The notes beneath the pieces were generated by a model. That model did no database searches, was not told where the DNA came from, and worked only from the letters and a program-made list of their open reading frames with translations. The translations under genes and the position numbers were made by a program. A DNA stretch of 63,995 nucleotides, filler included, from Circinaria calcarea (lineage: Eukaryota): assembly GCA_051942165.1 (NCBI GenBank). It is 3 parts of 3 records of this genome, joined end to end, with 100 filler letters (N's around TTAATTAATTAA, not from the genome) between each part and the next. Parts side by side here need not be neighbours in the genome. Positions count along the whole stretch, not along the records: positions 1 to 21,410 come from JAVECS010000144.1; 2 more parts are not named here. One strand, given 5' to 3'. Of the stretch, positions 6,617 to 53,521 are shown one piece after another. Each line of letters opens with the position of its first letter. Position 1 is the first letter of the stretch.

Positions 6617-7634
6617 CTTTCAATAAAGGCTGTACGGGGCTGGGTCAACGGTGCCTTTTCCCGGTAGAAGAGGTTGGTTGTGCCTTTGGAGCTCGAGGAG
6701 ACGAGAGATTGGGGTAAGAAAGAGCTGGCCATCGAGGATAAGTTATTAAAGCCCGGGATAGCAGGCTCCAAAATCTCTAAGCGCATTCGGTATAGGACTT
6801 CTCCAAGCATAGTTTGTGTTTCTGGTTATCTTTCAAGTATATTTCAAAGCACTGCCATGATATCAAAATCCCCAGTGCATTTATTGGCGGCGGCGGCGTG
6901 GTAAGTCCCTCCTGGTACCAGACATAGATCCCCGGCACGCAGTGTGTATAGGCTAGAGGGTGCGGTACGGAGTAGTGCTGACAGCTTCATGCAGTTGATG
7001 GTGTGGAAGGTAGCGGCGGTGTTGGTCAATGATCTTCAGATACAGCCACCACCAAAATGGCTGCCGCCTTTTAAGCTTGAACCTTATTCTCAATGTGTGC
7101 AGTCTCTGCATAATGACTCACTAACGTTGAAGGTGCGCGCTTCGTCCAAATCGAGGATGATTTGAAACGACTAGCTCCTCCAGTGGGAAACCGTATTAAG
7201 GCTGAGACCCGAGGGCTGAGATGTTGGATCTAGCACTAGAGCTAGGTGCATGCGGCTCAGCTAAAGCCCCTGCTAGTGACAGCGCTCAATGGTGAGACAA
7301 AGATAGAGTTCGATCTGACTGCATTAGCGCTTCGTTGGTTCAAGTCAATTTGGTACGAGCTTGGCGGTACTCCGTACTGAGACCGTCAAGGTTGTCGGTT
7401 GCTGATCGGTAGGCATTGCCAACATGACATGGTTCTGGACCGAGACCAATTAGGCAATATCCCACTCTCTGGATGGGATAGTTCAATGTAGATGGATAAG
7501 GCCATCTCGAGCCTTAGAGCTCGATGCCGTCCACTCGTCCTTTCGTTGACTTTGTATCAAACCCACCTCTCATATCAAAAACTAGAACTCTCTTTCAAGG
7601 AGCTCACATACTCTCAAAGCTCGAGGTCGCAGCT

Positions 7635-9599
7635 ATGGGATCAGACTCCTCTTCCCGCTATCTTACATCTTGGCGACTCGGTATAGTCATCTTCTCTCTA
7701 TTCTTGGGGGCATTTCTTACTGCACTGGATACCAACATCATTGGCGTTGCGGTCCCGGAAATCACCTCGGAATTTCGCTCCTTACAAGACGTGTCCTGGT
7801 ATGGCGCCGCCTACCTGCTCACAATTACGGCTTTTCAACCAGCTTTTGGAACCATATACAAGTTTTTTAGCATTGAGACAACATACCGAACATGTGTTGT
7901 TATATTCGAAGGTAAGACTCGGTGTCTGGTCTTTCAATTTCACCCGCTGAAAGTCTATGCATCAAGTTGGATCGCTCTTATCCGCCGCGGCGGTAAACTC
8001 GTACATGTTCATTGTTGGGCGAGCTGTTGCAGGTACGGGTGCTGCCGGCATACTACAAGGCGCGCTCAGTGTTATCGGCCACACCGTTGAACTTGAGAAG
8101 AGGCCAATGTATATGGGTATTGTTATCAGTGTCTTTGTCATTTCAGTCTGTATTGGTCCAGTTCTAGGTGGTGTTTTCACCACCCGCTCCAGCTGGAGAT
8201 GGGCTTTTTATATAAATCTTCCACTCGGTGCCGTGACCTTGGTCTTGCTCTTTTTGTTCCTCAAGATCAAAGGCTCCGAAAACAAGCATCGAAGATTACC
8301 TCTAAAACAAAAGCTTGAGCACATGGATCCACTAGGCTGTCTCATCTTTATCAGCACCATTACTTGTGTCCTCATTGCGTTGCAGTGGGGCGGTCAATCC
8401 AAGCCATGGAATTCGTCAACGATTATCGGTCTCCTGGTTGGCTTTGGGCTTTTGTCCTGTCTTTTTGTATACGTACAATGGAGACGGGGAGATAAAGCCA
8501 TGATACCGCTTCGTGTTCTTCGACAACGCTCAATCTACACTTCGGCAGGTGTACTTTTCTTCCTAGGCGCCTCGACTTACATCGTAAGTATAAGTTGGGG
8601 GAGTGTACAAGTGGAGCTGGAGGCTAATGCATATTACAGCATACCTTTTACCTACCGTTCTATTTTCAAGCAGTTCAGGGAGTCGATGCGATCACGAGTG
8701 GAATACGCTTCATCGCATTGATGCTCCCACAGATGGTCGCTTTGATCGGTGCTGGAGCTATAGTCTCCAAATGGGGACACTATGTATTTGAGAATAATCC
8801 TTACTCAGTGGTCTGGCCAGTAGAACTGACTATGAATAACAGGTGCCACTTATGATAGTTGGCGAGATTGTTTGTATCGTTGGGACGGCCTTGCTTACTA
8901 GATTAGAGCTGGGAACCTCCACGGCTATCTGGGCGACGTTTCTCGTGGTGACGGGTATCGGGATGGGAATTGCAATGCAGCTACCATATACGGCTATTCA
9001 AGTTGCTATACCGTAGGTTTCACGACCGGGCATTTTGAAGTAAACTTCTGACATCGATCTTAGCGAGACTGATGTCCCCACCGCAAACGGTAAGATTACG
9101 ATATCTTCTTTCATATCATCACTAATCTCTATTAGCCATTGCGGTCTTCAGCTGGCAACTTGGAGGGTACGATACAGCGACTCCTTTTGCTATAGACCGC
9201 CGCTAACTGGAAGTTAGTGCCATCGCCATCGCCGCTGGACAAACGATTACTATCAGTACCATAGTCAAGGAGGTTCCCAAGCAACTCCCAGCGATGTCCG
9301 TGGTTACCGTTCTTGCCGCCGGTGCAGCTAACTTATCGGAGTTTGCCACCTCTGCTGCTGCATTGAACACCCTACGGTTGATCTGGAACACTGCGGTTAA
9401 TAGAACCCTGCTTCTCTCGCTGGCTACTGTATGCGCGGCAATTCCATTCACTCTCGGAATGGAGTGGTTGAACGCCAAAGCAATCGCCAAGTCTCGAAAG
9501 GAGTTGGAGGAGAATCTGCAATCGGAGAAGATAGATGCTGACACAGAGCCTATATCGGAGAATGGAAAAGAGACTTCTACAGTCAAGGTGACGGTTTGA
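7635..9599 (+). CDS. MFS drug/toxin efflux transporter (DHA2/14-TM, AflT/GliA-like), multi-exon
   Basis: ALDTNIIGVAVPEITSEF, WYGAAYLLT, GRAVAGTGAAG, GPVLGGVFT..SWRWAFYINLP, ALQWGG..PWNS. Many short GT-AG introns. Confidence 0.92.
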
Positions 9600-10838
9600 G
9601 ACATCTGTAAATTTATATACATAACTCTTGGAGAACATTAAATGATATTTTACTGCAATGACTCCGTTTGCTTAAACCGCCCAACTCACTTTTCGATACT
9701 GTACAATCGCAAGTATTGGCCGACCGGTTAGCTGGTGATCCAACGAACTGCCCGAACTGTTGTTAGGCATGTCCTCGCCCAACCGATTGCAAACTCCAAA
9801 GAGGACCCCTGTCATTCAACGCAATGGGCGGGGGACTCCGTAATCAGCCACATATACTTAGCTCCTGGATTGCCAGGGGCCTTGAGAGGCAGAGTGATGA
9901 TAGTTCTAGCCAAATACATCATAGGACGCTAGCGGTTCAAGCTGGTTCCTCGGCTTAGGGCTGTGTTTGAGCCCGTTGTTGAAGCTTCGGAGCGTGGACA
10001 TGGATAAGGGCTCTATTCTATTCAACTAATGACCCTGATTCCTGATTTCCGACACAAAAACGGTCCATGTAATAAAATACCACCGTCCGTTGGTGTATTC
10101 TAGCCCCGAGCTGTCTGTACCCTGCACGCTGGCTTCAGGGCCTTATAAGCTATGCCCCCCATCTCTTGGTCCGTGCTAGCTTGAACGTGACCAACCTCAA
10201 TCTTGTATCCAAGCAACGCACGGTTCATTCCGCCAGAGAAACGGTCTAAGGAATAGGTAGCGAGTGTCGTGCCTCGAGGCTGAAACGAATTGACTACCTA
10301 GTAGCCGGGTGGAAAGGGAAAAGGAAGTACTCGGAATTACCGGCGTAAAATAGATTTGGTATTTGAATGCTTTATGGAATGAAATACTGAGTCCGCATAT
10401 ACTATCTTCTCAGTTCCAGCCCTAGGTGACCGATTCAACCCAGTCTGTCGCACAATCTGACGAGTCCTGGGATTGGAATCTGCAAATAGACTTCCGCCCC
10501 CACCAGCAGCGGCTTAACGTCCAGATTGTTTTAGAGCCGCATGTTATAGAAGCTAAAAAACGCAGGGGCGCATACGCCACTGTACTTGAAAGAACCGAAT
10601 CCAAGGTACCTTGAGTGATTCCCACTTGTCATGCCTGTCTCGCGGCGCGTACCAATCCTCTTCATGCATAGAATTAAACAGTTGGGGCTGAGCCGGAACG
10701 ACGGTATTGGACGGGGGGGGGAGGAGACTATCGCTGCTCGACCTTCATCGCCATATTTCCATGTTATGCGCTTCCTTTTCTGTCCCAGCTCTCCTTGAAT
10801 TTGCTAACTCAAGTCTTCACTGACCTGATTGCTGCATA

Positions 10839-12698
10839 ATGATCTTACAACTCCTACTCGGGCTTCCGGTCGCATGGCTCGTTTACAGCCTGGGCTGTTT
10901 GTTTACGAATGTGCGACGCGCTCGTGCTATCGGTCTTCCTGTGAAGCTGCTTCCCGTCAGTCCCATGAATATTCTCTGGGTCGTCTCCGAGCCACTCGCC
11001 TTTGGGATCATCGATAGACTCCCTTTCAGTCTCGGTAGTCTCAGTCGGTATGGCCGCAGGGCGTGGCACTTTAAGGAGAAAGCTCAATCCCACGTCGAGC
11101 TTGGGGACGCGTTCGCCATTGCATCGCCTGGGGAAATCTTCATTTACATTTCCGACCCGGACGCAATTGCTGACGTGTTTGTGCGTCGCGCCGACTTTGC
11201 TCGACCGCTCGAGATATACCGTGAGTCTGCCCGCTCGATTCACAAAGGATATTTTATTTAACTTACACCGCGGTCAATAGAGATGCTTGCAGTTTTTGGA
11301 TCCAACGTGTCCACGGTACGTGTCTCGCGCCTCCTAGTTTGGGTTTGACTGATGCCGTAAATAGGTTGGCTGGACAGACTGGCAGCGGCAAAGGAAAATC
11401 GTTGCGGCATCTTTTAACGAGAATACGAACAAACTTGTCTGGACCGAGTCCCTGGCTCAAGCGAGAGATATGCTGCACTCATGGACTCGGTGTGGCCAGT
11501 CAGGAGCGCAAGGCACAGCTCAAGATACCCGAACACTCTCCTTGGACGTCTTGGCTGCTACCGGCTTCCGCAAATCCTACAAGTTCCACTCCTTCTCTGA
11601 GCCCAGCAGCGATGCGAACGCGGCTCGAAGCTACCGACAGTCCTTAAAGACGGTTATGGATAATTCTATATTCATGATGGTGGCGCCGCCCAAGCTGTTA
11701 TCCTTGCCCGTGGTCCCAAAGAAATGGGCACGCATCGGCCAGGCGACGAGCGAATTTAGAGAATACATGATGGACATGCTCAACGAGGAGAGGCGCCTCC
11801 TGGGTCAAGGAAAGCCCGGGACGGGGAGCTTGATGACGTCGCTCGTAAGAGCATCAGAAGACCATCAGAAAGTGGGCTCGGACGGTCCGAAAGCGCTGAC
11901 AGTCAGCGAGATTTTGGGCAACATCTTCGTCATCAATTTTGCAGGGCATGATACAACAGCAAATACCTTGGCGTACGCTATAGTCCTACTGGCGGCGTAC
12001 CCCGAGGTACAAGCTTGGGTTGGGGAAGAGCTTGAGACTTTACTTGGCGATCAGAGCAGCGAGACTTGGAACTACGAATTTCTGTTCCCGCAAATGAAGA
12101 GATGTCAGGCAGTTTTGGTAAGCCTAACACCAAAGCAAGAGCTATAGGTTCATGGGGCTAATGAAACTTGTAGCTTGAGACAATTCGGCTGTACCCGCCG
12201 ATTATGGCCCTACCAAAGACTACTCATAATCATCCGCAATCCCTGAAAATCAACGGCAAGACGATTTTGATCCCTCCTGGCACCTATGTCGTACCGAGTC
12301 TACTTGCAGTTCACACACATCCAAAGCACTGGCAGCCGGAGCCTCTCGCTTGGAAGCCTTCGCGATGGATAACGTCAACATCGTCGAGCATGTCCAACGC
12401 CAGCACAGCTGAGAAACTCGAGCGGGAGGAACTCTACGTGCCACCCAAAGGCACGTACTTTCCATGGTCTGACGGCCCACAGTTTTGCCCTGGCAAAAAG
12501 TTCGCGCAAGTCGAATTTGTTGCCGTTCTGGCCGCCCTATTCAGAGCGCATCGCGTACGCCCATTGTTGCAAGAAGGAGAAGATGTGGAAAGTGGGCGGA
12601 AGCGGACCTTGGCCGTTTGTGAGGATAGCGAGCATGTATTGCTCCTACGCATGCGGGATGGGGATAGCATCAGACTAGTCTGGGAGCAGGCTCGCTGA
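10839..12698 (+). CDS. Cytochrome P450 monooxygenase (4 exons)
   Basis: N-terminal TM anchor, I-helix FAGHDTT, ExxR (LETIRLYPP after splicing), heme motif FPWSDGPQFCPGKKFA. Confidence 0.95.
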
Positions 12699-13662
12699 GG
12701 CCGGCTGTGATGTCGTTTAAGGGAATAATCATTTCAATACGTCATTGATGAACATTGCCTAAGATAGAGTAGTCTATGAAACACCAGTGTACTTGGTGAA
12801 AAAATGCATTTCCCCAAGCTCAATCTCCGTGCCAAAGCATGCATCCCTGACAGCCACCAACCTCGTATATCTACAATCCTATGACCACTGTCTGCTTCTT
12901 CGACGTGGCGATGATTCTACCTGCAAGCTTATGGCTCAGTTGGAACGAAACGACACGCTAGTGTAAGGCTGGGGGATTGCGGCGCTCTGCTTTTGTGTCG
13001 GGCTTGTACCTTGTAGAGAGCTCTCGTGGGCAACGATGCCAAGATATAGGCTGAGCTATATAAGGGCTAGCAAGGAGGTTACGCGGCTGGTAAAGTAACA
13101 AATGGGTCATTTTCTGTACAGCTATTATAGTGCTGACCAGACATCATTAGCTGCGCTGTATCGGGGATCCTTGAAAGCTTCCACATCCCTAGCAAGCTCT
13201 GGGGTCTTGCTGTGCCTGAATCATCTCTATCCGGCTTCCGGCTTGATACGGACGTTCTGGACAGTCGGAGTTGTCAGGTTCAGTAGCCAAGTTTCAAGTT
13301 TGAGAGGCTGAGTAGGCGCCAAGTATCAGGGTCACTGGGCACCCTCTAGGCCCATGTTTTCCTCGATGTCTTCCGACTTGCAAGCTGCGGCTCAGAACTA
13401 GACGATACAGTGAGATTAGTCGATACACGAGGCAAGGGATGGCAAACTTCAGTTTCCCGGATATGCCAGGTCTGGGAACACTGCGGCGAGCTGGCAAAGC
13501 CCCAACCAAGAATGTCCTATTCTAACTGGAGACTGTCAAAGCTTAGCTTGAAAGTTCAGAAGTCCTTTAAAGGTACGCATAACATGGCGAAATGGCTGCT
13601 TGTCCAGTGCGAGCTTCCTTTCCCCCCAAGAAAATCAAACTGTCTCAAAGGAATAGCAAACA

Positions 13663-14941
13663 ATGTCGGGTACTACAGATTCTGAAGCCAAGCAGGCGTA
13701 CGTCTTAAAGCGTGACTATATAGGAAGCTCCCGGTATGAACCTCCTTCCCTGGGGCTTCCCTAACTTACGCTTCTGAGAACTGACCACGCTCAAGCCTGA
13801 ATCTACAATACTACCTCTGGAAAGATGCGCTACAATTCAATCTCCACCCAGATATCCCTCCGCCTGCTGCAGGCGCTCGCATAGCAGACGTCGCTACTGG
13901 GACGAGGTATGAACCCCCGGCCTGCTCAACCTTAGCATATTCGCTGATACTCCACAGTATATGGCTTGTGGACATGGCCCGCACACTGCCAGCTACAGTG
14001 CAGTGCGATGGCCTTGATATCAGCCTAGACCAGTGTCCTTCAGCGCCGTGGTTGCCCGCCAATGTCAAACTGCAAAAGTGGGATATGTTCTCGGATCCTC
14101 CAGCGGAGCTCGTCGGACAATTTGATATAGTCCACGTCAGGCTGATCATGCTGGTCATCAAGGACAACAATCCGCTGCCCATTATTCACAATTTGTGGAA
14201 ACTACTCAGTAAGCCGCCAATCAGCGATTCGTGTTTTAGATAGTGTCCCTAATGACGAACAAAAAGAACCGGGCGGATACCTGCAATGGGACGAGGTAGA
14301 TGCTGCCGCAGTTTACATTGAGAAGACAGACCCTTCCGTGCAATCTACCGCAATTGAAACCCTTTTTCGTACATTTGCCATTCCCAAAGGAGTACGAGGC
14401 TCAGACGAGTAGGTTCTCCTGTTTACCCAGGAGAGCATAATCAGTGCTGACCTCGAATGTCAGCTGGAAAACGGATCTTTCAAGCACACTCGATCGGCAC
14501 GGGTTTCAGAATAGCAAGGAATTTCGTTACCGGGACCCTCCGACCATGGCAAGATACTGGCATGACCTGTACTGAAACCCCCACCCCCGACCCGTGTCGT
14601 TGGTAAACTCAGTTGTCTAACCCGGTGGAAATAGGTACATGGTCGCCTGGGAAGAATTCATCTCAAGGGTCCTCGGCCATTCAGGCGACACGCACAAGTT
14701 GATGGATCAGGCGATGGAGGAAGCACGAGGTGGTGCGGCGGTCATGATGCCCAAGGTGGTCTGGGTGGCACGGAAGGAGGGATCTTCGAGCGCGGTGCAA
14801 GCTGATTCTGATGTTCAACCGGAGGACAATGCTTGGTTGCAAAAGGGCCGGGCGGCCTCGTCGGCGAGGAAAGGATTACTGCCTCAGATGAAGGGGATGT
14901 TCACGTGGAGGCGGTCCCGGTTGGCTACGACGCGTGCTTGA
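13663..14941 (+). CDS. Class I SAM-dependent methyltransferase (LaeA-like / GliN-SirN-like type)
   Basis: Spliced reading MSGTTDSEAKQAYVLKRDYIGSSR-LNLQYYLWK...RIADVATGT-SIWL...DGLDIS...FDIVHVRLI...LLKPGGYLQWDE; about 5 GT-AG introns. Confidence 0.88.
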
Positions 14942-16442
14942 GTCCAGTTGTATGCGAGCAGGCATTCTGGTGTACCTTGTTGCATCTTTCTGGGGGGTTG
15001 GGGGGTGTTTGGTAGATGTGTTACTTGAGACCTTTAGCATAGTATTAATTTCACGTTGCACATAATCAATTCTTCCTCGCCGTGGCAATAAATGGCTCCC
15101 CAGGAGCGTTCACGTTTTTAGGGGGTGATGGGCTGAGTGGGAAGGGACCAGTCTGGCTTCCTTTTTTGGGGGGGCATGAAATGTGGATAAAAAAGTCTTT
15201 AGTTCCGCTGTCCACTATTCACCTACAGATCCTAAGGACTTTATGTATTTAAGGATGAAGGGCTTGTTCTCATGGCCAAAGTCTTTGTACATGGACCGGA
15301 TATAAGATTGTACTTGGTTATTTTCCCGCATGCCTATGGTGTAAATCTTTCTCCATGGACCAAAAAAAAAACAGTATTTGCCCATTACAATAATTAGCCA
15401 TAAAAAAAACACGCTCGGTCTCATATAGTCACATAAGTTGGTGGGCGCTGCTTCGCCCAGATACCCGCCTAGCATTTTCCCAGCGTTAGCATCCCCAATG
15501 CCCTCGGAGTCGCCCTTTTCTTTCCACAATCAAACTTACAATCGCTAAGATGCAGGCACCTAGGGCTTCCCGTTAGAGGTTTTCCCTTTGGAACCGTGGA
15601 GGAGAAAGGTACTTGCAGTCATTCCAGCCGAGCGAGAAAACCGAAAGGCCGGTGGCGCATAACCGGTTTCCGATCACTACGAGTAGGAGGCCCATGACCA
15701 GGAAGTCGATCAGAAGAGCGGAGCTGGATTGTGCGGTCTTTGGAAGAGCATCGGGAGATGTGGTGTGGATACCAACGAGAGAGGGATCGGTCGAGAATTG
15801 GGAGAAGTGCATGGTCTTGTGTTATGAGGGAACAGTTAGAGAGGAGGAGAAAAATGCTCTGATAGTTCGTCTGTTGTTCAGTGAAGAAGGTTTTGGTTCG
15901 AGGATAGGAGAGCAGTGAATAGGAAGAAGCGCGTAGAAAAGCAGAAGAGCAGCAGTCCAGACCCCTCACATTGCCTTTCCGTAGGCTTTCCTTGAGGTCC
16001 CAGATCTTCCTCCTCGCTTTGATCACGTCCTGTTGCCATTTTTGGGTACAACCAACAGGACTTACCGGAGAGGTATCGTCAGCCGGTGAAGCACTGCCAC
16101 CCGTAAGTCTAGGGGACTCGTGTGCGCCGCAATCCGTTGTTGATGGATGTTTCAAACGAGTTCACATGCTGCTGCCGAGAGCAGAAGTATGGGTCGGTCT
16201 CAGGTGGAGGGCAGGCCCGATGGAAGTACGTAGGCAGTGCATCGCCTGGTCCACAAGATTCTACATTGAACACCTTCCTTTGCCGAGCGGCGCAGGTTGA
16301 GTTGGCTTGGCAAGATTAGTTTCAGCTAGTGTTGAACGCTTAACGTACGTACCTAAAATAAGTAAAGGGCTGACAATCAGCCCAGTAATCTATACACGGC
16401 AGGCTCATCCATAATAGGCAGCATCTTTCCGCCTTGAGGCGG

Positions 16443-16512
16443 CATGCGGGTGACAAAATAGTTGGTTCGCGAAAAATATTCGGGGGGTGCCAACTATTTT
16501 GTCACCCACGTG
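16443..16512. mobile_element. 70-bp MITE-like element, 23-bp TIRs, 5-bp TSD GGCGG
   Basis: Perfect 18-bp inverted repeat GGGTGACAAAATAGTTGG (16448-16465 / 16490-16507), extending to CATGC.../...ACGTG termini. GGCGG directly flanks both sides (16438-16442, 16513-16517). Confidence 0.8.
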
Positions 16513-17642
16513 GGCGGGTATTAAAGTATTTAGACTAATGCAGGAGGGGTGTTGGCGCTTCTGCGGGTGGTTACACAAAGATAAAGTTATATTACATGTA
16601 GGTGAGATGCCATACCTTAGTGTGGTAATGGCATGCAAGCTAGTACTTGACGCTAGACAGAGCCCGGCGGCAACTCTATCTCAGCTTACCAAACTGCATA
16701 GTTAGCCGTCTTATAAGATGGCACGCAGCTATCCCTGTTCAATAATAGCTTAACGGCGCAGCGGCGCTCAAACCTACCGGTAACAGCGCTACCAAGCCGT
16801 GGGAGAGCTTTGACGTAGGGCTCTACTCCTCGGCGATATCCAAGAGACAAAATAGGACAATGTCCTGCCCCAGTTGTCTGCTTGACCCTTAAATAGTCAG
16901 TTATCCACAAGTCTCACAGCTGCGGCAAAGCCATTGCTCCCAATGCCTTGCATCGTTCAATCTCCACTTCCAATATCCCTTGAGCTATTGCTCTGGCGGA
17001 GAGAACCAGCCCCTGGTCCATACCGGCCTAGATTGACCAGTTCCAACCTTGTGATCGGCATCAGCTTCAGGGATATCTTGATCTTGATATCGCCCTCGGC
17101 ATTGTTGGTCTTCCGTATTCCTAGAGGGTTCCAACATCCGAGGAGCATCAGCGGATGAAGCTGGTGACGCTCGTATAGTGTCAATCTGTAATCCTGCCCA
17201 TGCAGAACTTCTCTGAAGATGCTAGTCTTTGGCTATGACTCTAGAACGATGGTCTACGGCTCGAGATTGCCAAATCGCCCCTGGGTGCTCTACCCTATCC
17301 TGGAAGAGATAGTGGCACTATGCTTACCGTCTTGCGGCTGGGTATGGGATGATGATCATAGTTAGGCCTCGCTGTGCAGAGGCTCAGCGAAGACCAATCG
17401 TCGGGACTAACGCCATGGGATATTGTTTCGAAAAACCACTTAGAATTTCGTCCTTTTTTGTTCTGCCCGTTGCATTTCCCGAGTCACAAACGTCGATGGT
17501 CTTCTGGAGATAAGTCTGTCCTGGAAACTCAAGCCCTTCGAGCTCATTTTCTAGCTTCCATTCTTCGGGGTTCAGTTACTACTTCGTATACACTACGGAA
17601 ACCATTGCTGCCTTTTGCATACAATTCATATAAGCAGGAGGC

Positions 17643-19751
17643 ATGTTCCGAGCCCTACTAGATCATTTCCTTGATTCCTGGGTTATAGGACAATGGCAAA
17701 TAGGTGTAATAGTTCTGGTTGGGATCACATTGTGGAGAATGGGGAACACCATACGTATCTATTGCTACCGCCCAGTATGTGTTCTACACCTTATCGGCAG
17801 ATCATGCCCTCCATGGCTGACAGTTTCAAGCGGAATCTACAGATCTCAGGTCGACCTTTGCTTGTTGGGAAATGGTTTAGCAGTCTTCAATTCATCATGA
17901 ATGCACCTCAGATGATCGAGAAGGCGTATGCAAAGGTATTTGCGGATAATTTTACAACGGCTCTTTCTTCTAATCGGATTGTCCAGGCTGACGGCGCATC
18001 ATTTGCTATACCGGCTCTAAACGAATATCAAGTACTAGTATCCTCTGCACAACACATCAAGGAGATCGATGTATGCTCGCCGGACACGCTGTCATTTCAT
18101 CAGGCGATGGAAGACGTTAGTGGAGCTTGCCCGCCATGAGAAATAATAGTTCTTGCTGACCTTTGCACAGAGACTCCGATTTAGGTTCACATGTTACGGA
18201 CTTGAAACAGGTAGTAAAAGTATAGATCCTCACGATACAATTCCTGGCCGGACCCTGAAATTCCTGCTTCGAACCCATCTAAATCAATTGCGGCCCAGGA
18301 TTCAAACTAGTATTGAGCAAGGATTCGCTGAGAAACTCGAACCACAATCACCTATTGGGGGTAATAACTATTTCCCGCCAAATCCGAGCTATCTGCTGAC
18401 CTTGATCCTAGGGTGGAAATCTGTATCTGTGTTTTCGTTGGCCGAAGCGATAACTGTGAAAATCAACAATCAGGTGCTGGTCGGTGAAGAGCTTGGTAAG
18501 TTATTAAATAGTGCAAAGCAAGCTCGTTCTTACTCTAACTTGACTGCAGCAAACAACAAAGACTTTTGCAGAGTGGCGGTACGGTACTCTCATGATACTG
18601 TCATAGCCATGGAGATTTGTCGTCATATACCAGAATTCTTGGTTCCGTAGGTCACTTCTATCACCAGCCAATTGCTTTACCTTCATGCGATTCCTCTCCT
18701 CACTGTCTGTAGATTGGTAGCTGGTGCCATTATGACTTGGAGCGGAGCGGTTAAGAAACTCGCTTCCTTTTTAACCCCTGTCGTTGAAAAATATCTTCAT
18801 CAAGATGTCGAAAACTATCAAGATCAACCAGTTAGTACCCGCCTATTACAAATCAACTTATCTGCTCTGACTCTCTTGCCCCAGTTGGATTGCATATCTT
18901 GGGTTATAGACTCGTCTCACACTCCAAAGCAGCGCACAACGAAAAGAATAGTACAGCAAATTCTCGGTCTGATGTTTGCCTCTACCCATCAAATGCCAAT
19001 GGTAAACACCCTGAGCAGTCTCCACTTTAGCCGTTTCTAACCATCCTTCTAGGCCCTTTCATATGCTATTTATAATTTATGTGAATACCCTGAATACATT
19101 AAACCTCTTCGCAGGGAGATAGAGACAATGTTCCAAGGGCCTGAGAAAAACTACTATAAGCACATGCCGCTACTAGAAAGCTTTCTACGGGAGTCTGCTC
19201 GTCTAAGCCCACTTGACGCATGTGAGTGTCCTTTACTATATATCGATCAGAGCATGGTCTGACTGACTATCATAGTATCTGTTCAACGTAAGGCCCTAAA
19301 GGCCTTTCGGTTTTCCGATGGCTCTTATGTTCCTAAAGGAAACTTGGTTGCCGTAGCTCAACAATGTCTTATGAAAGATCCAAAGTATTATCATAATCCG
19401 ATGGAGTTCAATGGTTTCCGATTCGTCAACCCGAAGGGTGAGGGGGGTGCCGAAGCCATAACTAAGTTTACGGATGTCGGACCGTCTTTCCCGTTCTGGG
19501 GAGCTTCGAAGAAGACCTGGTAAGTTCTATAAAAAATCAAACAATTCTTTCAAGATAGTCTGACCGCGGTATTGTACATTTGCAGTTCCGGAAGGTGGTA
19601 TGCTTCCGCGGCATTAAAGCAGACCATAGTACACTTGTTGACAAAGTACGAGTTTCGGTTAGCTGACAGGGATGCTCCGAGAATTTTTACGTGGACAACG
19701 GCAGTCGTTCCGCGGTATACTACCAAGTTATTATTACGGGAACGCAAGTAA
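17643..19751 (+). CDS. Cytochrome P450 monooxygenase (ent-kaurene-oxidase-like / PaxP-GliF-like group), highly intronic
   Basis: TM anchor, I-helix LMFASTHQMP, ESFLRESARLSP, FNGFRF, heme motif FPFWGASKKTC/SGRWYAS split by an intron; TAA at 19749-19751. Confidence 0.9.
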
Positions 19752-21410: not shown

Positions 21411-21510
21411 NNNNNNNNNNNNNNNNNNNNNNNNNNNNNNNNNNNNNNNNNNNNTTAATTAATTAANNNNNNNNNNNNNNNNNNNNNNNNNNNNNNNNNN
21501 NNNNNNNNNN
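21411..21510. other. Artificial contig-join linker (44 N + TTAATTAATTAA + 44 N)
   Basis: Six-frame stop-codon spacer inside an N run; same structure as the linker at 42880. Confidence 0.97.
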
Positions 21511-42072: not shown

Positions 42073-42517
42073 TGGATCTTTGAATATTGCTACTTGGTTT
42101 TCTTGGCATTAGCGTTGGCGTTACGGGATATAGGGTAATGTTAAATTGGCATACAGCATTGATGCATGTTCAACGCAGCGCCAGGAAGTCTGTAATAAAG
42201 CAGGGGGAAACAGAAGTGACGACGATATCCGATGGTGAGGACATCCTGAAAATGGTGGTTCAGATTCTTCACTTCACGGCTTAGAGTTGCCTTTGAATAT
42301 CCCTTGCAGACAAACATTCAAGAGTTATTCCAGGGGAGACATTGAAGCATATAAGTAATCTCTCGAACGTCCAACCTTTTAGTTATTTAATATCATATGT
42401 AAAATAGGGCCCTTGCACCTCAGCATGCTTAAGGTAGTACTGGTAGGTACAAAAGGCCTTCTGATCACTGTTATGGACTTTTTGTAGTCCCCCTGCCGAT
42501 GGAGGTGTTTTTACCAG

Positions 42518-42691
42518 CAGGCGCTTGACAAAAAAATTGCAACCCCAACAGTGATTACTCGCTAAATTTTCACCTCTAGATTTGTGGAACCCCTCCAATG
42601 TTGGTGGTGCCATACCCGAATCCTAGGCTGAAAGGGTCAGTAACTACAGCTGGGGGTAATTCAGGGTTGCAATTTTTTTGTCAAGCGCGTG
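42518..42691. mobile_element. 174-bp MITE, 28-bp TIRs (1 mismatch), 5-bp TSD ACCAG
   Basis: Perfect 25-bp inverted repeat GCGCTTGACAAAAAAATTGCAACCC (42521-42545 / 42664-42688), termini CAG.../...GTG. ACCAG at 42513-42517 and 42692-42696. Confidence 0.85.
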
Positions 42692-42879
42692 ACCAGCCGA
42701 CGCCGCATGGACATTCTATTCAGCACATCCAACCCTAGAAGTTCGTGTGAACACTACAGATTTGCTTAACAAAAACTGGATATATTCAAGCAATTTCCTT
42801 TTTTTCTAAAGACTATTCGACAATCGTGGCAGTAGAATTCAAATGAGATTGCGATGCATGGAATGTCATAACGCCTACT

Positions 42880-42979
42880 NNNNNNNNNNNNNNNNNNNNN
42901 NNNNNNNNNNNNNNNNNNNNNNNTTAATTAATTAANNNNNNNNNNNNNNNNNNNNNNNNNNNNNNNNNNNNNNNNNNNN
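42880..42979. other. Artificial contig-join linker (44 N + TTAATTAATTAA + 44 N)
   Basis: Same structure as 21411-21510. Confidence 0.97.
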
Positions 42980-43017: not shown

Positions 43018-46000
43018 TTAGGCGCGTGCTGAATTGAAACCAGCAATAACACGGATCATTTGTGACTCTGGCGCATCGCCATCAGACCATGCCACTTCCT
43101 CGAATCCGACGTCTTTCATATTCCTTTCCCAAAGACTTTCACTAGCCACAACATGCGACCGGCCATCGTTAAAGAGCCACCATCCTTCAAATAGACCCAC
43201 GGCGATATCCATCCAGAACATGTTCTGCGTGACTTCTACCAGAGTCAGGACACCATCTTCGCGAAGCATCTTACGAAGGTTCGACAATGAGTGCTTGAGA
43301 TTCGTTGTGGCGTGAACGCAGTTGGTGGAGATCACCACGTGGAACTCGTCCAGGTACTCATCCGGCGGGGACTTCTCGACATCAAGCACGCTGAACTCCA
43401 TGCCTTCAATGCCTTTGAACCGTCTCTTGGCGGCGGCCACCAGGGACGCCGACAAGTCAGTAAAGATATATTCAAAAGGGATTCCATGACGCCTGAGATG
43501 GTTTACGATGTACTTTGTTGTGCCTCCAGTACCTGCTCCAACCTCGATGATGCGAAACTTTCCATTCCCGTCGGCATTGGACAAGGCCTTGGTCAGGAAC
43601 TCTCCAAGCAACAGTATGCAAGATCGAAGCAGCGGCCAGTTCTCGTACATGTCATCCAGGTTTTGCTTATTGGTTTTGTCGCCGAAGAGTAGATGTATTG
43701 CATCCTTCTCGCCGGTAAGACATGCAGCAAGCTGCGATCCGGGGACTTGGGTTACCTTGTGCACATTGGCATGCTGAGGGTGTGCATCAAGTATCTCCCG
43801 AAAAATGACATCAGCTGGCGTGGTATCGACTGGCACGTTTGTTCGGAAACATTGATCCCCAGTGAACGATACCAGATGAGCATCCTCGAGAATGCGGTGG
43901 AGTTGGCGTACAAGTTGCTTGTGCCTAGGCAGGTACTGGATTTCAGGGATTGGCTCACCTGATCGGAGTGATTTTATATCGCACCCAAGAGCTGTAAATC
44001 CTTCCACGACGTATGCCAAAACAAGCCGAGCCTGCGTCGGGTAGACCTCGGTCCAAAAGTTGGCAGCCTGGATTTCTACGCCAATCCGGTCATGTTCATA
44101 CCGTATCTCTTCAAACGCTTTATGAGCTAAAGTGAGGGACGGCCGATCCAATGAGGTCTTCGCTGTCTCTCGGGTGTTGGCAGCGATTGATTCATTAGCG
44201 GGAGAAACATCCCCGTCGTCAGCGATGGTCTCAACTTTGTTGTCGTTAGGGTCGGCAGCGTTACCCAACATTGAATCAATGTGAGTGCAGATTGCTCGAA
44301 TGTTTGGAAGGAACAAGAAATCCGTCAGGTCGATATTGAGACCAAAAGCTGCCCGGATCTCGTTTAGCACCTCGGTGACCATCAGAGAGTCGATGCCGAG
44401 TTCTTCCAGGGTTGATTCGTCTCTTAACTCTTCTGCAGGTATGTCGGTAACTTTATGCAACAGCTCAATCAGATCACTGCGTTTGCTGGCAGGTTTCTTC
44501 GCTTGACTCTTTGAATTCTTCTCGCTGCTTTTGCTTGTGGGGGGCTCAAGGACAACTGGTGCTTGTCTTTCCTCATTCATGCTCACAGGAGCTCCTGTGA
44601 TAGGTCCATTGACACCTTTCAATATCCTGGCCACGACTGACTGAGGTGCTCTAGAGAAGCTGTAGTCAAATATTGTTATTACCAGCTTCTTGCTCTCAGC
44701 CTCGAAGACATATATATCGCATACTGTGCGTCGGTCATTATCTTCCGTCAGATTTGCATAGACAATCCACTCTTTCGCTTCGGGGTTGAAGCTGCCGCCA
44801 ATCTCGAATCGTCCGATCTGCAAGACAACATGGATGTCTTTGGCACTTGGATGTGTAAAATAATTTACCAATAAGCCGGCAAATTGCAGGAAGCTGTCGA
44901 TCATCGGGGTCTCACAAAGTCGCTGGCCAAGAGGAGCGTTCGGAGTCACGGATTTGACGACCCTACCGGCAGCCTCGTTACGCAAAGCAGCGATCCTTCG
45001 AACTCCATGGAATTCATCACCGAGACTGACAAGCTGGCTGATTGCTCGATAAATGTGACTTCCTTGCATGTTTTCAGCTTCAGCATTATTCATAATTTCT
45101 TCGCAGCGGCGAAACCCAATCAGGGATTCAAAACGCTTGAAATTTTGAACCATTTGTAGATTGTCCCGCTTCTGAAGGTAAATGTTTCCAGTTACGTGCT
45201 CTACAGGCTCGCTTTTACTCCGTCCTGACTTTTCCTCTACTTGGCTGGATAAGACGAAAGACCAAGACGATTGTGCCGCTTCATTACGGGTCAGGTGAAG
45301 GAATATGTCTTTGCTACTGTCGAGCCCGACCGGGTATTTCAATTGTATAGATTCGACACAAGGGACGTGGGACATGTCTTCTGAATCCGAGTGAAGAGAC
45401 ATTGCAGCTCGAGTAACTAGCTCAAAGTAAAGTGACACTGGAGCGAGAGCTTGGCCGCCGTGAAGGTGAGCTTGCAGTAAGGATTGATATCTATCGCTTT
45501 GCGGGTCTATGCGGAACTTTGCCTCGTTGTTGCTGCTATCATTGAATTTAACAAACGACAAAAATTCATGCTTGGTCGTTTCCTGAACAGGGTCAGTGGA
45601 GGTTGCGATCTCATTTCGCTCAGAAAACGGCAGCCAGTGCCGAGATTTTTCAAATTGGTACGGCGGCAGGGTCAGGAATTGGTATTGTTGTTTTTGCGAT
45701 CGATGGAAGAGCCAATATTGGGCTCTATAACCTGTCTTCCATAGGTTGCTAGTAACCTCAGAAAGTGAGCTCGTTGCGTTTGATGTGGTAAGTTGGGGAG
45801 ATAGGAAAAGATGCCCTTGATCAGGACGTGTCCCAAGAGTGCCTCGCACGAGTTGCATAACAGATGAACCATGGCCCGCCTCGAGCCATGTACACGCGGA
45901 AAACCGTTTCGCAAGCCTATTCACCGCTTGGTCGAAGAAGACTGGGCGTCTCATATGCTCTGCAGCGAGCCTGAAATCCGGCTCTGCGTAACTCGAGACA

Positions 46001-49000
46001 TCAGTGCATGTCTCCAAATAGATCGCTGGCAGTCTCCAGTCGAGCTCTTCTGCCAAAGCTGTGAGATGAGGCAGCACAGGGTCTGTGAATTTGGAATGAA
46101 ATCCGTGGGTAACTCGTAACATCTTCATGCGAACCGAATCGCGGAGAGACGGATTACTTATAACATGTTTTTCCAATCCCTCAATGGACTGAGCAGAACC
46201 AACCAAAATATATCGACCTGAGCCGTTGAAGCAGGCTACTTCCACGTCGTCATCACTACCTTTCGCTTTCAACGAATCAAGAATCAGAGAGATATTTTGC
46301 TCATTTGTCTGCAACGCGAGCATAGATCCTCTTTTAGGACCCCAGTGCTTGAGCATAAGGGAAGCTCTTCCGGCAACAAGCTTGAGTGCGTGCTCGAGTG
46401 ACAGACAGCCTGAGATACAGAGCGCAGTTAGCTGCCCAAAGCTGTGACCAACAACCGCACTGATCTCTAGTCCGCAATCCATCCAGGTCTTTGCGCAGGA
46501 ATACTGGACCGCGAAAAGCGCCGAATGGAGGGTTATCAGATTTGAGACGGGCGTGGTTTGAAAGACGGCTGGGTATAAACTGTCGTAGCCAAGTGCATCC
46601 AGAACTTCATCGCAGTGATCGAGATGGTGGCGAAATAATAGAGAAGATCGATACAGCCCCTCGGAAATCCCAATAATGTCGCTCTCTTGGCCTCCAAATA
46701 CAAGCACGACCGGCATCAGCTTACGATGGATTTCGCCCTGTAACGTATTCGATCCTGAGGCCACACCGTCAAGTTTATCTTCGAGGTCGGCTAGATCAGT
46801 AACTATTGTCGCAGCCACGTGCGGCAGTAAGTGGTTTCCTCTATCTGCCAGATTGAACGCCAAGTCCGACAGCAAACGGTCCGAGGCGTGCCTAGATCTT
46901 AGATCCTTTATGTAGCTGAGAAGTTTTCCACAGTACATCGAGAGACTGTTTGTTGATGCCGCCGAGGCGAACAGTGGATACTTTAGCACATCCCCAGCAG
47001 CTTTTTGATTTGCCTTGACGTTGTCAAAGGTATCGTCCGGCTTCGGGCGAACAATAATTGCAGCGTTACTCCCAGCAGCTCCGTAGCTGTTGATACAAGC
47101 TAGACGCGAAGAAGAAGCCCACGTTTGTGTGTTGCGGGGAATCTCCATTCTGTCTCCTTCCAACGGTGGTATCTTGGGATTCAAGCGAGAAAAGCTTGCT
47201 TGGGCGGGTATCATGCCATGTTCCATCATTAGTAGGACTTTGATAAGTCCTGCGATGCCAGCAGTAGCTTCGGTGTGCCCGATGTGTCCTTTGACAGAGC
47301 CGAAATATAGAGTCTGCTCACGCGAAGTGCCCCCGAAGGCCTCTCGAATACTCATTACCTCCAAAGGGTCGCCGACGACTGTCCCAGTCCCGTGAGCCTC
47401 GACATAGGATATCGATCTTGGGTCAACACCTGCAAGGTTTGAGACTTTCCTATAGAGGCTGGTCTGCGATCCAGAATGTGGCACAGTGATATGACTGCAG
47501 TTTTCGTTCTGATTGACCGCAGACCCTGCGATGACCCCGAGTATATTGTCTTTCTCTTCAATAGCGGTCGCTAGTGGTTTAAGAACGACAACTGCGACAC
47601 CTTCGCCGCGGCAGTAGCCATCAGCGGCAGCATCAAAGGGTTTACATGCTCCAGTTGGGCTCAGAAAGCCTGCAGCTGCAAGATTCTGATAGTCATACGG
47701 ACTCGTAAAAACATTAGTGCCCCCAGCTATGGCCCGTGAGCACTCGCCAGCTTGTATAGCCTTACAAGCTGTATTAATGGCGACAAGCGATGAAGAACAG
47801 GCTGTATCAATGGACATGGAAGGACCCGTCCATCCAAAATGATGGCTGAGCCTGCCACTAAAGAAGGAACGAGACGTTCCGAGCATGGAATATGCCGTCG
47901 GGGCATGGCATGAAACATTGTCATAATAGTTGTTGCAGACCACGCCAACGTAACACCCATAGTCGGTTGGTGTCGAAACCGGAGAGGCTCCGAAGTACCC
48001 AGACGACGCCATGGCTTCGTAAGCCACCTCAAGCAGGATCCTCTGCTGGGGGTCATAGGAGAGTGCCTCTCGGGACGACTTTTTGAAGAAGCGATGATCA
48101 AAGGCGTCGGCATCGCGTAAGAAATTGCCCCACCATTTCGTGTCGGGGCTTATTGTCTCAGCGATACGAGGGCCATCCATCTTCAGCCTGTCGGACGGCG
48201 CGGGCTCAACCATAGAAGTGCCCGAGAGTAACAGTTGCCAGAACTCATCGACTGAGTCAGCACCAGGGAGCCTGCAAGCCATACCTACAATGGCAACAGA
48301 ATGAGGAGGATACTGAGATTCCCCAGGAGGCAAAATCCCGTCCGTAAAGGCGGATGTACCACTGGCGGGGGTACCATTGACCGCGGTACCATTGACGGAT
48401 GTACCACTGCCAGATATACCATTGACCGCGGTACCATTGACGGACGTACCACTGCCAGATGTACCATTGACCGAAATAGTGGTGGGGAGCCCATGTGTTG
48501 ATGATGCTTCAACAGGCCGCTTTGCCTGGGAAAGGTCGAGGTCGAGCTTAATTAGCGATACAATCTCCAGGCTCGAGTTTTGCAAAAGAGAAGGTGGAAT
48601 ATGATTACCAAACCCTGCAAAAGCGACAGTTCGATTATTGGCCGGGAGTTGACCGACAGAAGCCTTTACGGTTCCATACCAATCAGCTGGTTTCAACAGC
48701 ATACTCTCGAGAGCGATTTTAAGCAGGGACCCTTCCTTGATGATCTGGCCATTGACAGTTGATCGCAAAGGTACTTGGATATCATCCACAGTTGGAAACT
48801 GCAATTCGCTCAGTGAAGCACATAGTTGATTGACCTTTTCAGCAGCGGATGAGAGTGCGGCAGAATGGAAGCGACCTTGCACAGGAACAATCTTAACACG
48901 CAGTCCGCGTAACTGGAAATCCTGAATGATATCTACCAGATCGGGATCTTGTGCGGTAACCGTGACACACGTGTCGTCAGTTATGCTCGAAATATACGCC

Positions 49001-49693
49001 TGTTGCGGAAAGTTTAGTTTTTACCACCTCTGCGTTGATATAAGCCTTACTCACACCTGGATATGCCTGAATAATTGTGGCAATGCCCTCCTTTCTAAGC
49101 TCCCCATTTCGCCAACGAACCGCCACACAAGCGGTTTTGTTTGGTAGCTCGGCAAAGCACCCATCTCGGTCGACATATGCCCCCACACAAACAGCCAGAC
49201 ACAAGCTGACTGCGCCTAACGTGGCGATGTCTTCCTCGGTTTTGGCGCAGGCCACAGCGATTGCCGTGAGAAAGCCAATGCAGAAGCCCTGAGTTCCACC
49301 AGCTTTGAGTCCTTCCAGTACCAGCTGATGTGAATCTTTGCCTCCCAGTCGGTTTTTATAACGAACGTACAGAGCTATCTGAAGAAGAATGGTGACAGGT
49401 AGGGCGTACACGTTTGGTGGAGGCGGGCCGTCAACTGGATAGGAGAACACACCATTTTCAATCCATTGCTGAAGATCACCCAAATACTCCGCTCCAGGTA
49501 CATGTATCAATTTAGGGTCAGACTCAATCAGTTTCTGCCAGAATGTCGGTAGGCCCTTCACTGCTTCACAAAGACCGGCCAATTGAGGAGTCCCAACCAG
49601 AACCTCGCGCAACTCAGCAACGACTTCCGCAGAAGGCAGTTTCGTCTGCGGTCCAAAGACTAGTAATGTCGGGAATGCTGCGGTTGACGCCAT
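43018..49693 (-). CDS. Iterative type I non-reducing polyketide synthase, SAT-KS-AT-PT-ACP-CMeT, no C-terminal TE or R domain
   Basis: SAT GFCIG and GRFH; KS DTACSSS, EAHGTGT, KGHIGHTE; AT GHSFG, HGFHS; PT His/Asp dyad (AHLHGG, IDSFLQ); ACP LGIDSLM; MT IEVGAGTGG. One intron at 49000-49054; stop at 43018 directly after the MT domain. Confidence 0.96.
48352..48475 (-). repeat. Coding tandem repeat (15-bp subunits, 45-bp higher-order unit) in the PKS SAT-KS linker
   Basis: Repeated GTACCATTGAC / GTACCACTGCC units encoding SVNGTSGSGTSVNGTAVNGISGSGTSVNGTAVNGT. Confidence 0.9.
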
Positions 49694-51643
49694 TCCCAAT
49701 CGACCAGATATGATGGCTGGTTTAAGTTGAACAGGGATTCACGTTCCCCTGGCCCTCGGAAGCGGAAGTGTAACGGAGGGCAATTGCTGTACTATAATAT
49801 GCAATGACTAAACATACTAGAGATGGCAGATATTCTTCTGGCTTGAAAGTCTGAGCATACTCATCAAATCCAGATTGCCCCTTTATCATATGGTGTACGT
49901 GATAATCGAGCTTACCAACCTTCACAAGCCAAACCCCCACTCGCTGAAATCCGGTTCCTATTCCCCCCATCCTACATCCTCTTATCTGCATTGTACATCT
50001 TGTTTTCATCTAATCTTCGCAGCACACGTGCAGACCTCTTGCACAGGCATATAAGCCAATGGTATTGAACATCACAGCTACATGGATGTCAACAACAAAA
50101 GCAATAGAGCGGGACAAATCCTTTATGCGGCGTTAGCATACACGTACCGAGGGTTGACTGTTATCATCAGAAGTTTGAAGCGCGCTAATGCAGCGACGGC
50201 CACAGACAAGAGATCGCAATTGAGCGGTGAGCAAGAAATCAAGCGTGTAGCCCGGTAACAGCATCAAGCGGCTCTTGGGATTTCCAAAGTGCTTCTAGAA
50301 TGCAAGTATGACGCAGTAATGAACCCCTTCGCTCCCTGCATATGCCCAAAGCCGCCCGCGAGGGACTATCTGATGGTTCCCATTCATCCGGCCCCTGGGC
50401 CGTGCCACCTTTATAGGTGAGATCGAGCACTAAGTACATACGATGAATTAGGCCCATAAAGCTTAATCTGCATCAAATAATTTGCCCTATAACCTTGTAA
50501 GTAATAATCCATTAAAAATTAAGATTTCTCTTTCTTGTTTTCATATTTTCTCAAATCAATTAAACAACAAGTGACAGCAAGCTCAACAAACGATACCGAT
50601 TGACAAGAATAACACCAACGAATTCGTGTCAGGAACTGCCTATTACCAGGCGAATAACTCCCCTTTGTGGGTAAGGCGTGTGTAGGGGCACATGGCCGGA
50701 TGAATGGATATCATCGGACAAAGCTTGATTGCTGTGTTGATCCCCCCCTTCCTTGCCTTAGTTATTATTGGTGTTGTTTCTGGTTATGCTTAGGCAGGCG
50801 CGGAATGATAGTACTCCCCAAGCTAATAAAAACCCTTGCTTTCACCGTACAAGTATTATAAGGGATCGAAGAAGGAAGAGGGCCCTCCCTGTCGAAATCG
50901 TGAAGAAACCCCCATATGCATGCTATCTATACCTGCAGTACGGCAACGACTCTCGGCTACTACCGTTCCTACCCATCTGAGACCATTGCGGTATTTTTGG
51001 CCATGACGGTATCGCAGGATTGATCAGCAAAGCATCATGGTATCTCTTATCAATGCTGTCGGGGCTTGAAGTTGCGGGTTCTGAACGTAACGTGGGACGG
51101 AAATAAGCCTTTGAGGGTCCTTGGTAGTGCTGACCCAATGCAGATGAGCGAATCCTTCAAATCCTTCTGTTGCCATCGGTCCGCACCCGATTTACAAGTT
51201 ACAGCTATATAACCACGATTATTAAGCGGGTTTAGGGGTGAAGAATTCTTAATGACTGTTACTGTCTAATAATAAGCGCTCCTTATAGTTTAGATACTAA
51301 GCTACCTATAGTGCAGTAAACGCGTGATTAATTCCTAGCTTACATGCTGGTTGATCCTGGGACTTCTATCCTGGAGGAAACGGCGAAGAAATCAAATGAG
51401 GATGGCATAACTGCGTAACAGCTGCATGAACGGATTCTGTCCTCTAGTAGTACCGGGTTTCTCTTGATCCCCTTTCTTTATCTTATTCCTTCCCTACTCT
51501 GTCCCTACTCTGCGGACTTTAAGTGTCAAAGGACCTAACAATTCCTCTCAGCTTTCCTACCACCATCACCTTCGTCACAAAAGAACTATCTCTCAACCCA
51601 TAAACTTTGAACCATCTTTGATTTGCTGTCTTCTTCCTTCATC

Positions 51644-52462
51644 ATGACTATCGAAAGTACCCGAGAAGCAGATGATGTGACCCTGCACCTCCCACGCATA
51701 CTCTGCCTTCACGGCGGCGGCGTCAACGCGAAAGTCTTCAAGGCGCAGTGTCGAGTTGTGATATCACAACTCCGAGGCAAATTCAGGTTATGCTTCGTGG
51801 ACGGGCCTTTCCTCTGCGGACCCGGTCCCGGCGTGATTCCCGTGTACAAGGACCACGGTCCCTTCCGCCGCTGGCAGCGCTGGCTGCCGGAGCACCCGGA
51901 GGTCGACGCGGAAACCGTGGTCGAGGAGATCGATATCTGCCTCAGGAAGACAATGGAGGAGGATGATCAGAGGGGCGCCACGGGAGAGTGGGTGGCGCTG
52001 CTCGGATTCAGCCAAGGCGCGAAAATTTGCGCAAGTCTGCTGTTTCGGCAGCAGGTGCGTGCCGAGAAGCTGGGCAAGGAAAGAGCCGGGTCGAAGTACC
52101 GCTTTGCAGTGTTGATAGCCGGGCGAGGGCCCTTGGTCTCGCTAGACCCCCAGCTTGTCTTGAGCCCGGCATTGGCCGATGCGTCGCAGATCACCCTGGG
52201 CTTCTCGAATTTTCCTGACCGGAGGAATCTGGAGAAGCAGGATCACGTCCTGCGTCTGCCGACCATCCATGTCCATGGCAAGCGGGATCATGGCCTGGAC
52301 CTGCACAGGCAACTGCTGGAGCAGTATTGCGAGAAAGGGAGCACGAAGCTGGTCGAGTGGGATGGCGATCATAGGGTGCCGTTTAAGAGGGAGGATGTTG
52401 TATCTGTCGTGGATCAGATAGTTGACGTTGCGAGTGCGACGGGCGTATTGAAGGAACGGTGA
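51644..52462 (+). CDS. FSH1/DUF341 serine hydrolase (CitA/CtnB/AfoC-type PKS accessory esterase)
   Basis: LHLPRILCLHGGGVNA..F..QCR, nucleophile GFSQGA, LPTIHVHG.RD (Asp), WDGDHRVP (His). Intronless and divergent from the PKS. Confidence 0.93.
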   Translation: MTIESTREADDVTLHLPRILCLHGGGVNAKVFKAQCRVVISQLRGKFRLCFVDGPFLCGPGPGVIPVYKDHGPFRRWQRWLPEHPEVDAETVVEEIDICLRKTMEEDDQRGATGEWVALLGFSQGAKICASLLFRQQVRAEKLGKERAGSKYRFAVLIAGRGPLVSLDPQLVLSPALADASQITLGFSNFPDRRNLEKQDHVLRLPTIHVHGKRDHGLDLHRQLLEQYCEKGSTKLVEWDGDHRVPFKREDVVSVVDQIVDVASATGVLKER

Positions 52463-53521
52463 GTTGCGATAGGGAGGGTGGCTGCTTAGGAACCTAGATG
52501 GGGCTAGGCTGGATTTGGAATACACGCCATGGCGGGAGGATTATAGGATGGACGGTTAGAAGGCTTGATATTATTCGTTGTTTGACCTTCAGTGAAATCT
52601 ATGTCAGCAGACTTTTCTCCATGTTGTCTGTACTCTGTAAGCTACCCGGTAATTCTTGGAGCTTTGAATCCTGCCGTCTGGCCGCAGAGCGCCAGCTCAG
52701 ATCACCACCACACGTCATGAGAGTCGCCCCTTCGGTGTTACCTTTGTAGGTATTCATTTCTGGGAACACCGGCCATGTTGCCCGGTTATTTCTTTATATC
52801 CCTGCCTGCTTAATCAGTGGAGAAAATAACAAGACACTGAATGCCCTCCGTGTCGATTTGCCTGAAATAGCATTGTTAAACATGCACAGTAGGACACCTT
52901 TTTTATGGTATTCCGACACGCCTTGTTAGCACGCACCGTCAGTCAGTCTCTTGCCTCGTTGTTTAATACCTTGGAACCCCTTTCGTTTATTAGCCAGGTA
53001 CTCGCAGTTTATTGAACCCGTCTAAAGAAAATATTCCGCCAACAGTAAGGGCAGGAGACGTGAGAAAATAGGCACCTCTAATCTGAGGTTCCAAGATCTG
53101 CCCAGGGTCAAAAAGTCTGTCGCTCGCGCAGAGTCTGTACCCTTTTGCTTTGTATAGCTTCATACAGACACAGTATAAGTAAAAGCTACAAGCTATAAGC
53201 TATAGGCGAGGGGGGATGGCTAATGTGGATAAAGCAGACGACAATGTTAATTTCCAGGAGGCTGCTATAGAACTAAGAACACGACATGAAAATCGCTTAT
53301 TAAACCCCGTGTCTGAAGGGGAGGGTCGTCGCTTTATGCTCCGGGGGTTTTTTTGGCCGGTAATTTACCGATCCGGGTGTTACCCGAAACCAGAATTTAT
53401 AATTAAGCGTACTTTTCTGCTCTGGACCTATACCTTCTATTGATAGAGGCTACGGCTGGCTTAGGGCGAATACGCCTAGAATTTATTATATACCGGAGGG
53501 AAATTTAATCACCGGACGACC

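Follow-up and report, generated by a model that had tools for sequence, protein, structure and literature searches.

Two small elements in a stretch of Circinaria calcarea DNA (63,995 nucleotides, filler included; this whole stretch is hereafter the window), designated E1 and E2, and a third from another fungus, E3, represent three independent insertions, each seen once, of a single TIR type. On a tentative reading, for which the case stands close to even, they are MITEs of an apparently undescribed Pezizomycotina lineage of the CMCT clade that makes 5-bp TSDs and falls outside Transib proper. Their ends probably point to the CMCT clade as a whole, with the branch not fixed. E1 itself is a real element, an unremarkable intergenic MITE that is probably dead. 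That two distant ascomycete classes carry the same TIR type together with 5-bp GC-rich TSDs suggests a transposase lineage of wide distribution, and no named fungal group in the literature examined shows this pairing of ends and TSD.

Anatomy and setting of E1 and E2

E1 measures 70 bp (window 16443-16512) and lies between exact copies of GGCGG, with arms (16443-16465 and 16490-16512) that are complementary at 21 of 23 positions. A sequence-only reading of the window had described a 70-bp element with 23-bp TIRs and exact GGCGG flanks, and its coordinates and letters both hold. E2, the related element at 42.5 kb, measures 174 bp (42518-42691), with arms complementary at 27/28 positions and an ACCAG duplication. 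The parts of both elements are as follows.

16438..16442, no strand: left TSD of E1, GGCGG
16443..16465, plus strand: left 23-bp TIR of E1, starting CATGCG (C>T at a CpG relative to the consensus CACGCG)
16466..16489, no strand: non-coding interior of E1, 24 bp, similar to the interiors of E2 and E3 only up to 7-mers, save for three bases that extend the right-TIR match to E3
16490..16512, minus strand: right 23-bp TIR of E1, reading CACGTG... inward; with three interior bases it forms the 23/26 match to E3
16513..16517, no strand: right TSD of E1, GGCGG, an exact copy of the left TSD
42513..42517, no strand: left TSD of E2, ACCAG
42518..42545, plus strand: left 28-bp TIR of E2, starting CAGGCG
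42546..42663, no strand: interior of E2, 118 bp, unrelated to E1
42664..42691, minus strand: right 28-bp TIR of E2, reading CACGCG... inward
42692..42696, no strand: right TSD of E2, ACCAG

E1 has the features of a MITE, being shorter than 500 bp, non-coding, and equipped with TIRs and an exact 5-bp TSD; 5 bp is also the longest flanking duplication for both E1 and E2 when lengths from 10 down to 3 bp are tested. The TIR consensus search proposed in the sequence-only reading, run within the window with up to three mismatches, returns exactly four matches—the four ends of E1 and E2—against a chance mean of 0.01. A looser 16-bp TIR pattern gives nine window matches against 4.8 expected, the five extras carrying three mismatches each. 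The hairpin fold of E1 has a z of -7.9.

Inverted repeats of at least 17/20 within 500 bp that also have a 5-bp duplication number two in the real window, E1 and E2, and none occurs in any of 12 dinucleotide shuffles. This result, and the occurrence of the same TIR and 5-bp TSD at three unrelated loci, argue against E1 being no transposon but a hairpin that arose by chance or locally, through replication slippage or as a regulatory palindrome or RNA hairpin, an account that is highly improbable. In its favour are the single full copy of E1 in the window and a weak Rfam match to the miRNA precursor MIR774 (score 21.9 bits, gathering score 80, E 0.48), of a kind expected of any hairpin. LTR ends read opposite to CA..TG, and a solo LTR reading of E1, whose ends are CA..TG, was rejected on this basis. 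As a single copy, the 70-bp E1 may have moved as such or may derive from a longer insertion by internal deletion. It is probably immobile today, because both its ends are mutated within the first five bases.

The TIRs of E1 and E2 have 16–17 of 23 bases in common without gaps, in agreement with the gap-free alignment reported earlier, while their interiors have no common word longer than 7-8-mers. The earlier assignment of E1 to the same family as the 42.5-kb element is thus not supported: since the TIRs alone are related and the interiors lack similarity, E1 and E2 represent distinct MITE types that have their TIR type in common, a TIR group rather than one family.

All three intact elements, one of them from another fungal class, have the 5-bp GC-rich TSD that had been proposed (GGCGG, ACCAG, and GCGCC), with G or C at 13 of the 15 bases (binomial p 0.001-0.004; n=3 sites). 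All six ends start with CA and four are literally CAC, the left ends of E1 and E2 being CAT and CAG, respectively. The proposed CAC...GTG termini are thus a consensus across E1, E2, and E3, not literal at every end, with one literal CAC end in each window element. An A-run is invariant at TIR positions 13-16 across the ends of all three.

Both arm mismatches of E1 are C>T changes at CpG relative to CACGCG, the state seen at the right end of E2 and at both ends of E3; by chance, both would land in CpG columns with a probability of about 0.024 (n=2). E2 differs at the same CpG by a transversion, and the two mismatches of E3 lie off CpG. The flanks have a CpG o/e of 0.67-0.76, compared with 0.89 for the window, and there is no evident RIP signature (TpA/ApT 0.78-0.91). 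Methylation-driven decay of the E1 ends, as suggested in the sequence-only reading, is plausible and consistent with both E1 mismatches, resting on these two bases, with those of E2 and E3 off the pattern.

Gene matches in the window (Pfam) are those of fungal DNA and comprise Rad5, MFS, P450s, an ATR kinase, Swi3, and a polyketide synthase (PKS). E1 is intergenic, about 1.2 kb ahead of a plus-strand ORF run (17675-19750), one member of which matches P450; E2 lies between Swi3 and a spacer at 42880-42979 that adjoins the 3′ end of the PKS. Both elements lie within or beside likely secondary-metabolite regions. The PKS (SAT, KS, AT, ACP, and methyltransferase domains) adjoins an FSH1 hydrolase in the region 43018-52462, and a separate MFS/P450/P450 group occupies 7518-19750. 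Two identical 100-bp spacers (21411-21510 and 42880-42979), consisting of N runs around TTAATTAATTAA, are joins, and therefore gene order across both is less certain.

Other repeats were seen in the window. An intergenic 26-nt inverted repeat at 61437-61773 (85% complementary, arms 285 nt apart) has a 4-bp match within the palindromic arm only and no convincing TSD, and is possibly another decayed small element. A 25-nt inverted repeat at 50369-50718 (84% complementary, 300 nt apart) lies between the PKS and the FSH1 hydrolase ORF, and scans gave no TSD for it. Minisatellites with 22-23-bp units occur at 53519-53722 and 60194-60306 (nine and five copies, respectively); they are about 61% alike, in the same orientation, and 6.5 kb apart.

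The same termini in a second fungus

A metagenome scan with the TIR patterns returned 12 loci, of which two (L006 and L010) are the E3 locus and ten are unpaired. E3 (L006:9040-9280) is 241 bp long, with perfect CACGCG...CGCGTG ends, arms complementary at 24/26 positions, and a GCGCC TSD, 5 being the sole duplication length among 2-10 bp. The right end of E1 matches E3 at 23/26 positions, as against 18-19/26 for E2 of its own genome.

L010 represents the same locus as L006 (99.6% over 5686 bp). In L010:10001-16368, E3 breaks off after about 211 bp into reverse-transcriptase-coding sequence, E3 being intact in L006; the break is an apparent LINE insertion, and the pair of contigs an apparent nested insertion polymorphism. 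The reconstructed target site of E3 (L006:9030-9290) forms a short palindrome around the TSD (TGTTG-CGCC-CAACA), a single case, the sites of E1 and E2 being without palindrome. In L006:511-4284, ORFs of 591 and 170 aa show a by-eye likeness to parts of tyrosine-recombinase retroelements, neither having a Pfam match at E 0.1.

A NACHT-domain ORF adjoining E3 in L010 has its nearest named proteins in Trichophaea and Wilcoxina (64-73% over most of the query), which suggests a Pyronemataceae-like fungus (Pezizomycetes) as the host of E3. For the window, the nearest named homologues of Rad5 are from Xylographa and Lambiella (86-87%), and we infer a lichen-type Lecanoromycete. With a Lecanoromycetes-like window and a Pyronemataceae-like E3 host, the TIR/TSD signature spans two ascomycete classes. 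With three copies, horizontal transfer may alternatively account for one TIR type in both classes.

The same patterns matched 52 loci in a prokaryote genome scan and 5, 12, 3, and 66 stretches in scans of viral contigs. When 77 ends in 76 loci were checked for pairing, only the two ends in L006 had a partner with at most two mismatches, the next best having six; a check of five loci paired none (0/5), and none of 67 ends (0/67) had a partner together with a 5-bp TSD. The unpaired prokaryotic, viral, and metagenome matches were treated as chance and used as negative controls. Since the prokaryotic and viral matches to these patterns were never paired with a 5-bp TSD, E3 is not a search artefact. 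A plasmid blastn gave no match.

Candidate transposases and a proposed mechanism

CMCT lineages have CA..TG ends in common and TSDs of 2-5 bp, according to the available parts of PMC12730594, and E1, E2, and E3 conform in both respects, with CA at all six ends and a TSD of 5 bp. In the same material, the TSDs are TA for ESTA, 3 bp for fungal EnSpm, and 2-3 bp for Plavaka; hence no fungal CMCT lineage named there has a 5-bp TSD, which counts against the CMCT-lineage reading. The TA of ESTA is not the TSD of E1, E2, or E3 (GGCGG, ACCAG, and GCGCC, respectively). EnSpm/CACTA, Mirage, Chapaev, and Plavaka differ in their TSDs of 2-4 bp, the value here being 5 bp in 3/3.

In sequence, however, the ends of E1, E2, and E3 appear to resemble those of ESTA more closely than the Transib heptamer, on a by-eye, post hoc, and uncomputed comparison. 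By eye, 11 of the 22 ESTA 5′ ends in the part of the PMC12730594 supplement available start CAC-N-RCGGG, against CAC-GCGGG in E1 and E3; ESTA-14_PGr has the same GCGGGTG followed by an A-run, and ESTA-1_AB agrees with the right TIR of E2 at 15/20 positions ungapped. Exact 12-mers of the E1, E2, and E3 TIRs are absent from that supplement, of which about 400 letters per sequence were available. The ESTA transposase is RAG1-like by HHpred, and the ESTA families in the material available come from rusts and Agaricus, with no ascomycetes among them (PMC12730594). For most families, the likeness depends on a single-base gap close to the end, and it relies on the low-complexity A-run.

Among the matches listed from the openly accessible literature, there was no Pezizomycotina description of this TIR or of a CAC-ended family with 5-bp TSDs; Repbase, Dfam, or fungal TE-library supplements may contain one.

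In cut-and-paste transposition, a transposase supplied in trans excises the element and makes staggered joins, and gap filling duplicates the target. For E1, E2, and E3, a DDE transposase encoded elsewhere would act in trans and bind both TIRs. It would belong to the CMCT clade (EnSpm/ESTA/Plavaka/Transib, with a RAG1 fold) and to a filamentous-ascomycete lineage, and would be non-Transib in the strict sense. The terminal CAC is a putative cleavage signal and the conserved TGACAAAA tract a putative transposase binding site; such roles would explain why the TIR, but not the interior, is conserved across classes. Joining of the excised element to GC-rich target DNA would be staggered by 5 nt, and host repair would fill the resulting gaps to leave the 5-bp TSD.

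RAG and Transib cut by a nick-hairpin route. That the partner of these MITEs is a true Transib/RAG1-like transposase, long resident in filamentous ascomycetes, cutting by this route and making a 5-bp stagger in GC-rich DNA, is an alternative, albeit an unlikely one. The Transib signature consists of CAC...GTG ends, a 5-bp TSD, and GC-rich targets, together with a CACAATG heptamer, a 12- or 23-bp spacer, and an A-rich nonamer (PMC1131882, in the part available); its first three traits are present in 3/3 elements, and by analogy their TSD and termini would work like those of a Transib-type MITE. Twenty fungal Transib-like proteins are reported in the accessible text of PMC9435367, including one from the ascomycete Erysiphe pulchra, and Transib TIRs may be symmetric and variable (PMC9435367; preprint 10.64898/2026.08.26.747230, each in part). 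Against this, only 2-4 of the 7 heptamer positions match and the A-tract begins at position 13, with no 12/23-bp spacer. A fungal genome survey scored Transib as absent (PMC5751038, available portion), and the TIRs of a Transib-like copy in Austropuccinia could not be identified, as stated in the accessible part of PMC9435367.

The sequence-only reading had proposed a non-autonomous family with Transib-like ends, perhaps mobilised by a Transib/RAG-like or other 5-bp-TSD transposase. The idea survives in part, E1 being a MITE whose ends and 5-bp GC-rich TSD match the Transib signature; a specifically Transib/RSS-like TIR is not supported, given the heptamer, the A-tract, and the spacer layout. 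The transposase for E1, E2, and E3 was not found among the window ORFs scanned with Pfam, and with the RSS-like TIR failing as well, the elements are not classed as Transib. Pfam scans of 37, 18, and 12 ORFs, a subset from the window and some of the loci, yielded no transposase family. A RAG1/Plavaka seed protein sought in prokaryote genomes gave 0/5, 0/401, and 0/300, the controls being equally silent, which leaves these counts uninformative.

Available parts of preprint 10.64898/2026.08.26.747230 describe TSDs of 2, 3, and 5 bp (2 to 5) within one Transib lineage and an RSS-like TIR layout that is variable in some Transib lineages, and hold that TSD and TIR should not outrank transposase homology. 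Should the Transib account apply, a Transib/RAG1-type lineage would persist in at least Lecanoromycetes and Pezizomycetes, its MITEs being footprints with a compact TIR that lacks an RSS-like spacer; this, too, is doubtful.

A partner from another DDE superfamily whose TSD length has shifted, be it hAT5-like, P-like, Kyakuja-like, or unnamed, is rather improbable. The accessible parts of PMC12730594 give a TSD of 5 bp for hAT5 and of 7 bp for fungal hAT7 and Kyakuja, so that TSD length is variable within a superfamily. The ends of Kyakuja are CA..TG, and hAT7 consensus sequences start with CA. hAT elements are, moreover, ubiquitous in fungi (PMC5751038, in part). Nevertheless, hAT5 falls within animal hAT lineages (PMC12730594), hAT targets are AT-rich (PMC1131882) as against 13/15 G+C in the TSDs here, and hAT7 ends, which start CAA or CAG, are by eye unlike the TIRs of E1, E2, and E3, as far as the available portions of these sources go.

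The TIR consensus can serve directly as a probe with which to find the autonomous element in assembled genomes. A Transib/RAG1-like partner would extend the family of the RAG ancestor to tractable fungi; an ESTA/EnSpm-like one would mean that the CMCT clade had evolved a 5-bp stagger on at least two occasions and that this stagger is not diagnostic of Transib.

Comparison with known systems

Small non-coding TIR elements are familiar from ascomycetes, as in Epichloe EFT-m (PMC3227409), the TIR/MITE elements of Umbilicaria (PMC8773270), and PdMLE1, many of which likewise have no known parent in the parts of these sources available. The TSDs of EFT-m are AT, TA, or 3, 8, or 9 bp, and the accessible text makes no mention of '5 bp' or '5-bp' (PMC3227409); the Umbilicaria text available states no TSDs (PMC8773270). 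hAT5 has the 5-bp TSD in common with E1, E2, and E3 but is placed among animal hAT lineages, the comparison covering TSD length (PMC12730594, in part).

Transib, as described by Kapitonov and Jurka in 2005 (PMC1131882, available part), is like E1, E2, and E3 in its CAC...GTG consensus ends, 5-bp TSD, GC-rich targets, and non-autonomous derivatives. The present elements differ from it in having no CACAATG and no 12/23 spacer with nonamer, in their short 23-28-bp symmetric TIRs, and in their ascomycete hosts. ESTA and fungal EnSpm have in common with them the CAC starts and fungal hosts, and by eye their initial 10-20 bases are alike (RCGGGTG and then an A-run). The ESTA and EnSpm families in the available material are, however, from Basidiomycota, with TSDs of TA and 3 bp, respectively (Kojima 2025, PMC12730594), whereas those described here combine a 5-bp GC-rich TSD with Pezizomycotina hosts.
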